Shown here: in pieces, positions 37,931 through 61,922 of the stretch
How positions within the stretch are numbered: position 1 is the stretch's first letter
How the letters are laid out: each line of letters starts with the position of its first letter
DNA from: Candidatus Oxydemutatoraceae bacterium
GTDB lineage: Bacteria; Pseudomonadota; Gammaproteobacteria; Poriferisulfidales; Oxydemutatoraceae
Direction: 5' to 3'
DNA: 64,000 nt
Assembly: GCA_965219575.1 (NCBI GenBank)
Contig: OZ244779.1
Coordinates: 1,324,769 to 1,388,768 of the forward strand
The notes under the pieces: model-generated
Told to the model about the DNA's origin: nothing
What the model saw: the letters and a program-made list of their open reading frames with translations, nothing else
The model's database searches: none
Translations under genes and position numbers: made by a program

Positions 37931-37985
37931 TCTACGGGCGGACATACAAGTCCGCCCCTACAAGGAGGGGATGCTCCGCCCCTAC
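37931..37985. repeat. REP-like palindrome
   Basis: GGGCGGAC-ATACAA-GTCCGCCCCTAC between convergent genes. Confidence 0.8.
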
Positions 37986-46955: not shown

Positions 46956-47124
46956 GGGGCTGTTGAAGAAGTATTTCATGCACCGTAGGGGCGGACTAAC
47001 ATGTCCGCCCGTAACGCGTTTCGCCGGCACGATTTATACATTCATTCATCCAGTTTATGGAAACCAAAACCATACGGCGCAAGCGGTTGCAATTTTGCAA
47101 AAACAGTACTTTTTCAGCAGCACC
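46956..47124. mobile_element. MITE-like modular repeat containing an empty IS110 target REP
   Basis: TIRs GGGGCTGTTGAAGAAGT / ACTTTTTCAGCAGCACC; GTAGGGGCGGACTAACATGTCCGCCC. Confidence 0.8.
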
Positions 47125-50142: not shown

Positions 50143-50683
50143 CTAGTTATTTTCATAAAGCAAAGTTCCGGTTCGTTGATTATCTACATAATTTTCTTGC
50201 ACTGGTATAGCATTCCAAAACAAACTGCCGTTTATATTCTCCCGAGCGATTATCAGCATATTCTTTCTCCCTCTAAATAATTTAATAAACCGACGACGGA
50301 AACTACCGTCATCATATCTAGCCAACCAAATTTCATTCGGGTCAGTCAATGTAGGGAGAATAAAATTAGCATACCTTTCTCGAGTAGCTAGCCGTTTCCC
50401 GGATATATACCTTAATCCTCTCTTGCTAACGACAACCGGTTCTAGTGGTGTGCGAATGTTGCGAAAGTCGTTTTTTTTACCAAACACAGCTTTCATGATT
50501 TGAGCGTAAGCGAGGTCACTTGAATCTGCTTTAGGTGAGCTTAGGAGGCTCTGCAAACGCAGAGTCCGGAAGTTCTTTTACGCCGGGTAATCCGTAGTCT
50601 CCATATTCTTTTTGATCGGATTCTATGATGGCGACACCTTTACCGCAACCGCCGACTTGATCGGACAATGCGCCGACACATAC
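50143..50683 (-). pseudogene. PBECR2-like nuclease-fold domain (MuF/phage-type C-terminal domain), frameshifted and 5'-truncated
   Basis: RERYANFILPTLTDPNEIW..RRRFIKLF; upstream frame ..EPPKL joins PKADS by a frameshift near 50535; cut by the MITE at 50684. Confidence 0.6.
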
Positions 50684-50841
50684 GGGCTGTTGAAAAAGTA
50701 CTGTTTTTGCAAAATTGTAACCGCTTGCGCCCCTCAATTACGCAAAACACCTGTAGGGGCGGACTAGCATGATGCCTTATTAAAAATCAAGTCATTTTAT
50801 TCATTTTTTATCTCCGTTTTATATTTTTCCTGAGTATCGAT

Positions 50842-51828
50842 TTAGGACGCAGATGCGCAACAATAATTCGGGTCAAACGGCTTCCTGTATCTGAGTATCC
50901 CGTAAATAATACGTGCCAGCTTATGGGCGCAAGCAACAATAATCTGCTTTTTAGTTAACTCCGGACGCCGCCGACTTAATTGGTCGGCAAAGGCACGGAT
51001 GATTGGGTTATGAACCCGTGCCGAGAGTGCCGCCATAAACAGCAGGGTGCGCAGTTCGGCATCGCCCATTTTAGAGATATGCGCCTTCGCCTCGTAGTTG
51101 CCGGACTGCCGGTGCCTTGGGTTGAGACCGACATAGACTGCGAATTGCTCTGCGTTATCAAATGTCTTATCATTGAAAACAGCACACAGGGCAATCGCTG
51201 TCTGAGTGCCGATGCCGGTAATGGAACACAGCAACTGCTTAAGCTCTGCGAGTTGCTCGTCTTGAGCGATAATTTGCTCCATTTCGGCATCCTGCTTAGC
51301 AATCTGTTTGTCAAAGTATCTCAGGTTCTCAGCTGCTCGTTTTTTTTGCCTTGCATCGCATAAGGTTTTCATACAATTACTTAACCCGGTATGATCTTTG
51401 ACTAATTGCCTGCGCACTTTTCGTGCATCTCTCAAGGCGAGTGCAGTCGGCGACGGCATTTGCCAATCTTTACCGTCAACAGCGAATGCGAACAGTGCGA
51501 TGAGCCGCGCATCATCGCGATCGGTTTTATTGTGCATACCAAGCGATTGGCGGAAGCCGGCAACCTGCGCCGGTCTGACAATCCTAATCGGATGTTGAGC
51601 CAGATAGCCGGCTTTGCACACGGCGAACTCAAAACCGCCGGTGGCTTCAACACAGATGCGACAGTGCGGTGCGCGGTGTTTGCTAGCCCAAGCTAACAGC
51701 TGCTTAATACCCTTGGCATCATTGCTGAATTGTGCCTCGGCAAAACTATTATCGGTGAATAATAGAGCGGCCTCTAAAGTGTCTTTAGAGACATCCACGC
51801 CGATTATGGCAGGGTGTTTGTTTTCCAT
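50842..51828 (-). CDS. IS110 recombinase (DEDD RuvC-like plus Tnp domain)
   Basis: GVDVSK, VEATG, KTDRDDA, RQSG; start MENK after GGAGG. Confidence 0.95.
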   Translation of the reverse strand: MENKHPAIIGVDVSKDTLEAALLFTDNSFAEAQFSNDAKGIKQLLAWASKHRAPHCRICVEATGGFEFAVCKAGYLAQHPIRIVRPAQVAGFRQSLGMHNKTDRDDARLIALFAFAVDGKDWQMPSPTALALRDARKVRRQLVKDHTGLSNCMKTLCDARQKKRAAENLRYFDKQIAKQDAEMEQIIAQDEQLAELKQLLCSITGIGTQTAIALCAVFNDKTFDNAEQFAVYVGLNPRHRQSGNYEAKAHISKMGDAELRTLLFMAALSARVHNPIIRAFADQLSRRRPELTKKQIIVACAHKLARIIYGILRYRKPFDPNYCCASAS

Positions 51829-51883
51829 AATAATATCCTCCATTATGGTTGTTCAGTGAATAAAATACTCGGTAGCCAGTTCA

Positions 51884-52082
51884 GGAAAGTATGACTACGC
51901 CGCCCACACAGGTAAATACGAGATCTAAAGTCTCAAGCTGCCTTCCGAGCTCTATAGTCATAGCGCCGGAGGAGTGCTTTTCATGCTAACAGGCTTTAAT
52001 GCCTCGTCCGTCCTGCGGCGTGTCTCCTCCGACTTCCTAGGTACTGCAACTACCTAAGCATTTATCTTATATAAATAAGCTA
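51884..52082 (-). ncRNA. Predicted bridge RNA, copy 1
   Basis: Two stem-internal-loop-hairpin units whose loops match the target REP and the donor junction (see findings); exact ends inferred. Confidence 0.85.
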
Positions 52083-52369
52083 GGGTTTAATATACCTGTC
52101 CGCCCGAAACGTATCATGTTTGCACGATTAACGCGTTCACCCATTAATACTATGGAAACCATTATTTGTTGGCGCAAGCGGTTACGGCCGTGCAGAACGG
52201 TATTTTAGGGCAGACATCAAAATTGCCGATTGACCTACCGGCTCAATCGGCGGCTTTATACTGCCCCTACGAATCGGTGGTTATTATAAATTCATGGCGC
52301 AAGCGGTTACGGTTGCACGCTGACGATACTTTTTCAACAGCCCCAAATAACCATCATACACCACCGAAA

Positions 52370-55339: not shown

Positions 55340-55366
55340 GTAGGGGCGGACTAACATGTCCGCCCT
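55340..55366. repeat. REP palindrome (empty IS110-type target)
   Basis: GTAGGGGCGGACTAACATGTCCGCCC. Confidence 0.85.
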
Positions 55367-59898: not shown

Positions 59899-60143
59899 CA
59901 CTGCCGGTTAAGCCGAAAGAGGGGGTAGGGGGCTGTTGAAAATGTATTTCATACATCGTTGGCGTACCATTCCCCTCCAGAGGAGGGGAATGTACCGGCA
60001 CTATGCTCTTGCAGATATGACGGGGCTGTTGAAAAAATATCCACGAACCGTAGGGGCGGACTAGCATGATGCCTTATTAAAAATCAAGTCGTTTTATTCG
60101 TTTTTTATCTCCTTTTGTGAGTATTGATTTAGGACACAGATGC

Positions 60144-61118
60144 TCAACAATAATTCGTGTCAAACGGTTGCTTGTGCGTGGTGACCCCGTAAATAATACG
60201 CGTGAGCTTATGAGCGCAAGCAACAATAATCTGCTTTTTAGTTAACTCCGGACGCCGGCGACTTAATTGGTCGGCAAATGTACGGATGGTCGGGTTATGA
60301 ACCCGTGCCGAGAGTGCTGCCATAAATAGGAGGTTGCGCAAGTCGGCATTGCCCTGTTTAGAGATGGGCGTAGGCGAGTTGCAGTTGCCGGATTGCTTGT
60401 GCTTGGGCGTGATGCCGATATAGGCGGCGAGTTGCTTTGGATGGCGAAACGTATTATCATCCAGTACTGCACACAGGGCAGCCGCAGTTTGAGTTCCGAT
60501 TCCAGGAATGGAACACAGCAACTGGTGAAGCTGTGTGAGGTGCTCGTCTTGAGCGATGATTTTGTCCATTGAGGCATTAATCTTATCGATCTGCTTCTCA
60601 TGGTTCTTCAGGCTAGTGGCTGCCACCTTTTTTTGCTTCGCATCGCGCAGAGTTTTAGCGCAATTGCTTAACATCGTACGACACTTGACTAATTCCCTGC
60701 GCCATTTCAGTGCGTCGCGCAAGGCTTGTACAGCCGGTGAGGGTTTTTGCCAATCGTCTTCAGGCGGGATAGCAAATACGAAGCGTGCGATGGTACGCGC
60801 ATCAACGCGATCGGTTTTACTGCGTATGCCGAGCGAGTCGCGGAATCTAGAGATCAGCACCGGTGCTGCCACGGTGATTGGATGCCCGGCATCATAGCCG
60901 GCCATGCACAGGTCTAGTTCAAGACCGCCGGTCGCCTCAACGCAGATGCGACACTGCTGTGCGCGGTGTTTGCTCGCCCAAGCTAACAACTGCTTGATGC
61001 CTTGGGCATCACTACTAAATTGTTGCTCGGCAAAACTATTATCGGTGAATAATAGAGCCGCCTCTAAAGTGTCTTTAGAGACATCAACGCCAATCGTGAC
61101 GGGTTGTTTGTTTTCCAT
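60144..61118 (-). CDS. IS110 recombinase
   Basis: GVDVSK, VEATG, KTDRVDA, KQSG. Confidence 0.95.
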   Translation of the reverse strand: MENKQPVTIGVDVSKDTLEAALLFTDNSFAEQQFSSDAQGIKQLLAWASKHRAQQCRICVEATGGLELDLCMAGYDAGHPITVAAPVLISRFRDSLGIRSKTDRVDARTIARFVFAIPPEDDWQKPSPAVQALRDALKWRRELVKCRTMLSNCAKTLRDAKQKKVAATSLKNHEKQIDKINASMDKIIAQDEHLTQLHQLLCSIPGIGTQTAAALCAVLDDNTFRHPKQLAAYIGITPKHKQSGNCNSPTPISKQGNADLRNLLFMAALSARVHNPTIRTFADQLSRRRPELTKKQIIVACAHKLTRIIYGVTTHKQPFDTNYC

Positions 61119-61178
61119 AATAAATTACTCCATAAGGGTTGGTTAATGAATGAAATACTAGGTATCAAACACAGTTTA

Positions 61179-61377
61179 GGAAAGTATGACTACGCCGCCC
61201 ACACAGGTAAATACGAGATCTAAAGTCTCAAGCTGCCTTCCGAGCTCTATAGTCATAGCGCCGGAGGAGTGCTTTTCATGCTAACAGGCTTTAATGCCTC
61301 GTCCGTCCTGCGGCGTGTCTCCTCCGACTTCCTAGGTACTGCAACTACCTAAGCATTTATCTTATATAAATAAGCTA
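61179..61377 (-). ncRNA. Predicted bridge RNA, copy 2
   Basis: Identical by eye to 51884-52082. Confidence 0.85.
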
Positions 61378-61922
61378 GGGTTTAATATACCTGTCCGCCC
61401 GTAGCGCGTTGGTCGGCACGATTTATACATTCATCCATCCGATTTATGGAAACCAAAACCATCCGGCGCAAGCGGTTCCAGCCGTGCAGAACGGTACTTT
61501 AGGGCAGACATCAGAGTTGCCGATTGACCTACCGGTTCAATCGGCGGCTTTATACTGCCCCTACAGGTGGTTTGCAAATGTTCATGGCGCAAAGCGGTTG
61601 CAATTGTGAGAAACAGCACTTTTTCAACAGCCTGATGATGCGACTACCCCGTCAGGCTGAATAGAACCGCCGATTGAACCGGTAGGTCAATCGGCGTGAC
61701 TTTGTTCAGAACCTCAACATGCCTGCTAAACGCGTGCATTGCAAAATGCATAGGCCACCCCTCCGAAGGAGGGGAATGGTACGCTCTTACATTTCGTGGT
61801 TTACATCGCCAGCGATATGATTTCGTTGATTTATGCTATGATAATGTTTTTCAATTTTAGGATTACGCAGAGGCATCGGCTTACTGCAATAACCCGTTAT
61901 ATCTAAGCAATAGGAGAATATT

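Follow-up and report, generated by a model that had tools for sequence, protein, structure and literature searches.

The window analyzed here, a 64,000-nucleotide stretch of contig OZ244779.1 from a Candidatus Oxydemutatoraceae bacterium, carries on its minus strand an IS110-family insertion sequence (IS) whose noncoding left end very probably encodes a bridge RNA of the IS621 type, one that would direct a circular form of the element into the hairpin of the host's repetitive extragenic palindromic (REP) sequences at a CA dinucleotide. This reading is carried by the anatomy of the element, the matches of four guide segments to target and donor DNA, the insertion of its copies at one specific site, the covariation of the guides with the DNA they face in the genomes of the genus, a conserved RNA scaffold, and the homology of the encoded recombinase to that of IS621. 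The covariation between guides and DNA is the strongest evidence for a bridge RNA.

A REP-inserted element with a structured left end

On the minus strand the left junction of the element reads GGGCGGA-CA/GGTATAT (52105-52089) and the right one AAGGCAT-CA/TGCTAGT (50778-50763), with the left end opening GGTATAT at 52096 and the right end closing AAGGCAT-CA at 50770. The two junctions share exactly the dinucleotide CA, and the element is therefore 1327 bp long with a 2-bp core (Table 1). Joining the flanks reconstitutes GGGCGGAC-ATGCTA-GTCCGCCC, a palindrome with a 6-nt loop that is also present uninterrupted in the host genome, and the CA core lies where the 5' arm of this REP meets its loop. 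A strict pattern finds 208 REPs in the host genome (2.37 Mb in one contig, labeled G000, with G434, G435, and G436 denoting other genomes of the genus), 102 of them on one strand and 106 on the other, and their loop variants include ATGTTA (55), ATGCAA (40), ATGCTA (34), ATGCCA (34), ATATAA (22), and ATACAA (16).

By DNA search the same genome holds seven full-length copies of 1317-1327 bp, four of an "A" type at 97-100% identity and three of a "B" type at 80-81%. All seven are inserted in a REP and at the same CA: the left flank GGGCGGA-CA is followed by the element start G(G/A)TATAT, and the element end AAGGCAT-CA by the right flank TG(C/T)(T/A)AGTCCG(C/T)CC, in every copy. When G436 is taken together with this genome, each of the 13 analyzable copies lies between (A/G)GGC(G/A)GA-CA on one side and CA-T on the other. 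The open reading frame (ORF) is intact in all seven host copies and this, together with the near identity of four of them, points to recent activity.

The ORF encodes a recombinase with Pfam matches to PF01548 (75.5 bits) and PF02371 (79.8 bits) and a match to NCBIfam NF033542, "IS110 family RNA-guided transposase," of 222.2 bits against a cutoff of 140. Its residues 13-326 align with residues 9-321 of the IS621 recombinase (chain 8wt6_A; E 1.9e-45), to which it is, from a reading of the alignment, roughly one third identical, and it aligns to the ISCro4 recombinase as well (E 1.1e-42). In the IS621 alignment, the DEDD motif and the catalytic serine, as named by Hiraizumi et al. 2024 (PMC11208158), are matched by residues D17, E66, D108, D111, and S247-G248, and in all four aligned relatives the catalytic D, E, D, D, and S-G are invariant. 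Judged by these matches, the element is an IS110-group insertion sequence. The true start of the recombinase is likely the second ATG at 51828 (MENK...), a start shared with relatives and preceded by GGAGGA 7 nt upstream.

Counted from the ORF start or from this second ATG, the noncoding left end measures 253 or 268 nt and is longer than the right end (72 nt), and it is the left end that contains the RNA domains, at 52059-51889. The minimum free energy (MFE) fold of 52082-51889 reaches -63.4 kcal/mol (z -2.6, with 4 of 200 shuffles equally good) and begins with a small 5' hairpin and a 6-bp stem-loop, which are followed by two domains with closing stems of 10 bp and 8-9 bp, each of these domains holding an inner hairpin and a large internal loop. 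A second MFE fold is similar, with both stem-closed loops and a z of -2.8 (2 of 200 shuffles as good). In a long-range pairing suggested by RNAalifold, the region of the 5' stem-loop would join sequence lying beyond the donor loop on its 3' side; this pairing was rejected, one of its pairs being broken in the locus L129, and the local 5' hairpin is preferred because it pairs throughout, via U-A, U.G, and C-G.

Four guides lie within the two loops, the left and right target guides (LTG and RTG) in the first and the left and right donor guides (LDG and RDG) in the second. In IS621, whose bridge RNA is 177 nt long (Durrant et al. 2024, PMC11208160; Hiraizumi et al. 2024, PMC11208158), the two left guides are described as top-strand in sense and the two right guides as reverse complements of that strand (PMC11208160), and the same senses hold here. 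The LTG matches its DNA at 7 of 9 positions with one additional G.T wobble, the RTG (TAGCATG) at 7 of 7, the LDG at 7 of 8, and the RDG at 8 of 9; with wobbles included, pairing extends to 9 of 9 positions for the RTG and 8 of 9 for the LTG. Delimited by the IS621 definition instead, the guides are GGACGGACG, GUUAGCAUG, AAGGCAGCU, and AUUUACCUG, which match at 7, 7, 7, and 8 of 9 positions and so total 29 of 36 against the target GGGCGGA-CA-TGCTAGT and the donor AAGGCAT-CA-GGTATAT. None of 200,000 genomic 16-mer pairs drawn at random reaches 29 (mean 17.2, sd 1.9, maximum 28), where the scoring allowed the best register within each proper loop strand.

An earlier note on this DNA, made from its letters, had proposed the stems, hairpins, and guides, the four match counts, the REP as target, and CA as the core. 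Every string it gave lies at its coordinates on the minus strand, and the folding it called for, now carried out, returns both stem-closed loops. Its counts (7/9, 7/7, 7/8, and 8/9) are reproduced and exceed chance, the REP target is borne out by the seven of seven copies and by 34 empty sites that carry the exact loop variant ATGCTA, and the core it named is the 2-bp overlap of the two junctions.

Guides that change with their DNA

An order-wide search finds the element in three of the four other genomes of the genus and in none of the 48 genomes from the other 10 genera of the order, and a scan of genome contigs with the recombinase protein returned one other genome, with four loci. Six RNA variants, v1 to v6, are distributed across four genomes of the genus. 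For G434 and G435, 14 of the 20 copies found were tabulated (those with loci), and two G436 copies, L130 and L132, were left out of the guide table, another element interrupting each before its right end. Both of these v3-type copies carry an identical foreign insertion about 1 kb into the element, which displaces the right end.

The guide variants can be read directly against the sites in which their copies sit. Variant v1 (copies A1-A4 and B1) has the RTG UAGCAUG and occupies CATGCTA in four of five copies, the fifth, CATGTTA, pairing through a G.T wobble; v2 (B2 and B3) has UUGCAUG and sits in CATGCAA in both copies; and v4, with the same RTG UUGCAUG, does so in two of three. The G436 variant v3 has GGUAUG and lies in CATATC, CATGCC, or CATGCA, with one wobble each and at most one further mismatch. 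The two remaining variants belong to G434/G435, where the REP arm is GGGAGGGC instead of GGGCGGAC (the pattern with the GGGAGGGC arm occurs 135 and 163 times in these two genomes and 0 times in G436) and where, among 150 REP sites listed, the loop is ATGTTA in 138, ATGCTA in 9, ATGATA in 2, and ATATTA in 1. Of the 13 copies with v6 (RTG UAACAUG), 11 occupy CATGTTA, and v5, with UAGCAUG, sits in CATGCTA, the rarer loop of its host.

The remaining guides behave in the same manner. The LTG is GGACGGAC in genomes with the GGGCGGAC arm and CGAGGGCU in v5, where it faces the arm GAGAGGGCA, and an RDG with ACCUG accompanies left ends that start CAGGT, one with AUCUG left ends that start CAGAT. The RTG thus tracks four variants of the REP loop, the RDG tracks the G or A of the left end, and the LTG tracks the REP arm of the species, such that every informative guide change goes in the direction predicted by the bridge RNA model. 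It is important to note that the guide variants are few and related, and that the number of independent covariation events is correspondingly small. In the assembled contigs of one public run, three changes in the RTG (at 51985, 51987, and 51989) turn the v1 guide into the v3 guide of G436; guide polymorphism therefore exists in other samples too.

The positions next to the core provide a further point of comparison. The IS621 bridge RNA is reported to carry, 3' of the core-binding part of each right guide (RTG and RDG), two bases that mismatch their own DNA and, once strands have been exchanged, pair with positions 7 and 6 of the other DNA, the so-called handshake (PMC11208158). Positions 6-7 read GA in the present target and AT in the donor, differing as this rule requires. 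All six variants have A as the handshake base of the target loop. This A pairs with donor T7 but not with the target's own position 7, whether that is A (where the REP arm is GGGCGGAC) or G (where it is GGGAGGGC). In the donor loop, five of the six variants have U, which pairs with target A7, or in v6 wobbles with G7, but does not pair with donor T7. The exception is v5, whose G pairs with position 7 of neither target nor donor. Position 6 pairs fully in v6 only, in the target-loop handshake.

One of the host copies, B1, lies within the window itself and is a chimera. Over its first 208 nt, a stretch that takes in the complete bridge RNA, it agrees with the A type at 208 of 208 positions, and from about nt 210 onward it is of the B type (60/60, 323/330, and so on against B2); the REP that it occupies has the ATGCTA loop matched by the A-type guide. 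Two element lineages have thus exchanged a guide module.

From this arrangement, and by analogy with IS621, we propose the following course of events. Excision as a circle would set a -10 box of the left end beside a -35 box from the right end, and the promoter so formed would drive transcription of an RNA of about 190 nt. Two hexamers fit such a junction promoter: the circular right end-left end (RE-LE) junction would space TTGATT and TATATT by 17 bp, and TTGA(T/C)T is found at the same distance from the right-end terminus in all variants. A sigma-70 promoter reconstituted across the RE-LE junction of the circle is described for IS621 (PMC11208160). The RNA would fold into a 5' stem-loop followed by two stem-closed internal loops and be bound by the DEDD/serine recombinase, with the guides of the first loop matching the REP target in the host and those of the second reading the joined ends of the element itself in the same way. 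Strands would then be exchanged at the shared CA, at the junction of the REP 5' arm and loop, and once the top strands have been exchanged, the A that follows the RTG and the U that follows the RDG on their 3' sides would each pair with position 7 of the other DNA. In this scheme we infer from the anatomy the transcription and the ends of the RNA, its binding by the protein, the circular intermediate, and the dependence of recombination on the RNA.

Scaffold conservation and competing explanations

Outside the guides the RNA is conserved in its pairing. Within the genus, 3 of 64 stem columns vary as opposed to 16 of 104 other columns (Fisher p 0.044), and all three stem changes preserve pairing. 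In the 5' stem-loop one pair passes from U-A through U.G to C-G, and another changes from A-U to G-C in v5. Across 10 distinct sequences of the genus 99.7% of the cells are paired, and the counts for the clade lie at 99.7-100%. The clade of the recombinase comprises 17 protein clusters at 48-69% identity and is followed by a gap down to 37%; a metagenome scan with a four-protein alignment added 80 loci, all 28-36% identical and used as ground for the model search below but not for comparing guides, and a class-wide protein search found 8 other genomes of 400, all at 31-36% identity. When a covariance model of the scaffold, R1 (171 positions, 32 pairs), was run against 88 loci with IS110 transposases 28-36% identical (198,229 bases), it gave eight matches at E up to 10, the best at 8.1e-5, and all eight lie on the strand of the transposase and end about 0-100 nt before the start of the protein match. 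An alignment of 13 sequences, six from the clade and seven distant, has 97.1% of its cells paired where shuffles have 72.4% (sd 1.5), and shows changes on both sides in 27 of 32 pairs where shuffles show them in 14.1 (sd 2.4); neither value is attained by any of 500 shuffles, and slid controls are at most 48% paired. The covariation among distant relatives is good, though not independent, support for the scaffold.

Several observations weigh on the other side. The 13-sequence alignment was fitted to the structure of R1, which favors that structure; 80 of the 88 distant loci give no R1 match; the stem covariation within the genus is not significant, one pair having changed on both sides and 48 of 500 shuffles yielding as much; and a search of 50600-52300 against Rfam 15, which may hold no bridge RNA family, returned no match at E up to 10. 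A look for RNA sequencing runs that contain the stretch listed none, a result that bears on transcription in neither direction. The guides themselves are imperfect. Position 3 of the left target (LT) places A opposite C in all variants of the host genome, the second core base makes a G.T wobble with the LTG and a mismatch (U opposite T) with the LDG, position 7 of the left donor (LD) is mismatched in five of six variants, and the v6 LTG, AGAGAGGAU against AGGGAGGGC, forms only six Watson-Crick pairs and one wobble out of 11. Finally, the putative junction promoter has a counterpart in the integrated copy, where in a simple scan the flanking ATGATA-17-TATATT scores equal to the junction version, at 9/12.

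Two other explanations have to be weighed against a working bridge RNA. The complementary segments could be subterminal repeats bound by protein, or could match by chance, with the structured left end acting as a translational leader and no RNA doing any guiding. The RDG and LDG do copy the element's own termini, one inverted and one direct, much as subterminal repeats would, and the structured region does lie directly upstream of the ORF. The target-loop segments, however, match host DNA and not the element, and they change with the REP variant and with the REP arm of the species, and the layout, strand rules, and handshake positions are those demonstrated by experiment for IS621, whose recombinase is homologous over its full length; we consider this explanation highly improbable.

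Little more weight can be given to the possibility that the RNA is a bridge RNA by descent and no longer functions, its guide matches being vestiges of past spread or of homologous recombination from REP to REP. In its favor are the conserved mismatches of the LTG and LDG, the chimeric B1 as a sign of homologous recombination between copies, and the finding that all seven host copies, a small sample, lie on the minus strand although the REPs divide 102 to 106 by orientation. Yet the ORF is intact in all seven and the catalytic residues are kept, four copies are 97-100% identical in different flanks, the guides in four genomes follow REP variants that differ, and IS621, too, is described as tolerating a mismatch at LD position 7 (PMC11208160), all of which makes a mere relic quite improbable. 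A functional bridge RNA that targets REPs accordingly remains the reading we hold with considerable confidence.

Table 1. Features of the element, its RNA, and its targets in the window (positions as numbered from the first letter of the window)
Feature	Position	Strand	Basis or remark
Whole IS110-family element, 1327 bp including right-hand core copy	50770-52096	minus	junction reading
CA core, left copy	52097-52098	minus	sole sequence common to both junctions
CA core, right copy	50770-50771	minus	junction reading
LD AAGGCAT + core CA, right-end terminus	50770-50778	minus	junction reading
LT GGGCGGA; with core C, 5' arm of the REP palindrome GGGCGGAC	52099-52105	minus	
Right target (RT) TGCTAGT (50769-50763), into 3' REP arm GTCCGCCC (50764-50757)	50757-50769	minus	
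Recombinase ORF, 333 aa	50842-51843	minus	ORF and domain matches
Predicted bridge RNA, ~194 nt	51889-52082	minus	start placed from the -10 box; end at the last donor-loop stem pair
171-nt scaffold	51889-52059	minus	modeled as covariance model R1
5' stem-loop UAGGUA-7 nt-UACCUA	52038-52056	minus	MFE fold
Target-binding loop domain, 10-bp closing stem	51965-52033	minus	
Target-loop closing stem GTCGGAGGAG / CTCCTCCGGC	52033-52024 / 51974-51965	minus	
LTG GGACGGACG	52013-52005	minus	
Target-loop inner hairpin AGGC-ATTAAA-GCCT	51991-52004	minus	
RTG GTTAGCATG, including TAGCATG (51988-51982)	51990-51982	minus	
Target-loop handshake bases AA	51980-51981	minus	
Donor-binding loop domain, 8-bp closing stem (8-9 bp in fold)	51890-51962	minus	
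Donor-loop closing stem TATGACTA / TAGTCATA	51962-51955 / 51897-51890	minus	
LDG AAGGCAGCT	51944-51936	minus	AAGGCAGC also starts at 51944
Donor-loop inner hairpin GAGA-CTTTAGA-TCTC	51920-51934	minus	
RDG ATTTACCTG	51909-51917	minus	
Donor-loop handshake bases TG	51907-51908	minus	
-10-like hexamer TATATT, 2 bp inside left end	52089-52094	minus	
-35-like hexamer TTGATT, 15 bp from right-end terminus	50785-50790	minus	
Second copy B1, 1325 bp, same REP site type	60067-61391	minus	DNA search
Uninterrupted REP, loop ATACAA, potential empty target	37937-37956	plus	
Uninterrupted REP, loop ATGTTA, potential empty target	46990-47009	minus	
Uninterrupted REP, loop ATGTTA, potential empty target	55345-55364	minus	

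Relation to known bridge RNA systems and further observations

The earlier note had likened the architecture to that of IS621, and the comparison stands: an IS110 recombinase with the DEDD residues and serine, an RNA in the left end that presents 5' stem-loop, target loop, and donor loop in this order, the same guide senses, a 2-bp core, a 9-nt RDG with an internal mismatch, tolerance at LD position 7, handshake bases, and REP targets are common to both. The differences lie in the core, which is CT in IS621 and CA here; in the RTG, 4 nt there and 7-9 nt here; in the second core base, which here has no Watson-Crick pair to either LTG or LDG; and in the site of crossover, here at the junction of the REP 5' arm and loop. 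The target of IS621 lies at the 3' end of the E. coli REP. The present system, in addition, is known from its sequence only.

Another system for comparison is ISPpu10 of Pseudomonas putida, which is described as an IS110-group element with a bridge RNA acting on many REP copies and a target with a conserved stem-loop (bioRxiv 10.64898/2026.03.19.712850). Its core is CT, however, and its hairpin arises when a 5' extension pairs with the left target, which leaves the core outside, whereas in the element studied here the 5' arm itself serves as left target and the right target spans the loop and enters the 3' arm. ISCro4 / IS622 shares a homologous recombinase, 14-nt recognition, and handshake positions 6-7 at which target and donor differ, and is set apart by its CT core and its close relationship to IS621, from which the present clade is distant (bioRxiv 10.1101/2025.05.14.653916). 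The IS1111 group is characterized by an RNA in a long right end and by subterminal inverted repeats of 7-17 bp (PMC11208160), and the present element, with a right end of 72 bp and its RNA in the left end, falls outside it. Literature searches showed no paper on bridge RNAs in this genus (Porisulfidus), and none of the four papers found on it concerns IS110, judging by titles and abstracts. Siddiquee et al. in 2024 are said to have found that IS1111-group elements, which belong to the same IS110 family, select their targets through seekRNA.

The earlier note had further held that the class was known and that this instance might be new. The first part stands, and the second does so only in the sense of a new orthologue, with no new mechanism: because bridge RNAs have already been predicted in 85.7% of IS110-group elements (Durrant et al., PMC11208160), what we describe is a new bridge RNA orthologue of known mechanism, in which the CA core and the hairpin-loop geometry of the target are modest variations. 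The methods of the same study select "CT core guides" from a wider set (PMC11208160), which suggests that cores other than CT exist in the IS110 group. A natural series of guides and a chimeric copy are neat, and would be unsurprising to a specialist. The family of bridge recombinases nevertheless gains an orthologue distant from IS621, with a CA core and a long RTG, and its natural guide variants would constitute a ready specificity panel for rules of programmability beyond the CT-core systems studied so far. A bridge RNA of this kind would also explain why copies of the element are found only in REP hairpins of the host genomes. From one sister species to the next, the guides of the element are seen to diversify along with the REP family.

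A more far-reaching view can be advanced only tentatively, and we consider it possible and on balance unlikely: that this genus, whose members are relatives of sulfur-oxidizing symbionts, holds a natural series of reprogrammed bridge RNAs in which a single invariant scaffold carries six guide sets retargeted to the REP arm of each species and to variants of the REP loop, with the CA crossover inside the hairpin, where the 5' arm meets the loop, guide modules moving between lineages, and some RNAs perhaps acting in trans. Were this so, module exchange and solo target loops would amount to a natural route of retargeting. The suggestion of action in trans comes from an orphan locus of the host genome, G000:C1:2280574-2280715 on the plus strand, which resembles the target-loop half only (R1 42.3 bits, E 8.5e-9). 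Its 10-bp closing stem is the same, the 5' stem-loop is present, and the inner hairpin shows the compensatory change GGGC/GCCC; its loop sequences differ, the 3' loop strand is enlarged, and TATAAT lies directly upstream. Both a donor loop and a downstream transposase ORF are missing from the locus. It could be a solo guide RNA or else a relic.

Several minor observations concern the copies and their surroundings. In two loci, L152 (G434) and L154 (G435), a partial left-end fragment is joined at CA to a complete element and lies upstream of the full copy; it runs from the beginning of the left end as far as a CA that lies within either the target-loop stem or the 5' stem-loop. The arrangement looks like recombination at a pseudo-site with a CA core, and the fragments resemble the tandem noncoding repeat units described in bioRxiv 10.64898/2026.08.14.744561. 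In two of four public runs, the assembled contigs contain a joint that skips exactly 1327 bases, with two ambiguous letters. An empty allele of this very locus was considered and rejected as its origin, the two sides of the joint being only 18 and 26 letters long and the REP being repeated about 200-fold; the joints are probably other, empty REP copies. The seven host copies fall either side of the GC-skew extremes (at about 2.33 and 1.50 Mb). The REP is itself embedded in a larger, high-copy composite repeat (52100-52355 and 50700-50760 of the window), of which motifs such as AACCGCTTGCGCC, GGTTTCCATAAAT, and TACTTTTTCAACAGCCC recur next to other copies, and across 52100-52355 the summed contig depth rises 10- to 100-fold in all four runs.

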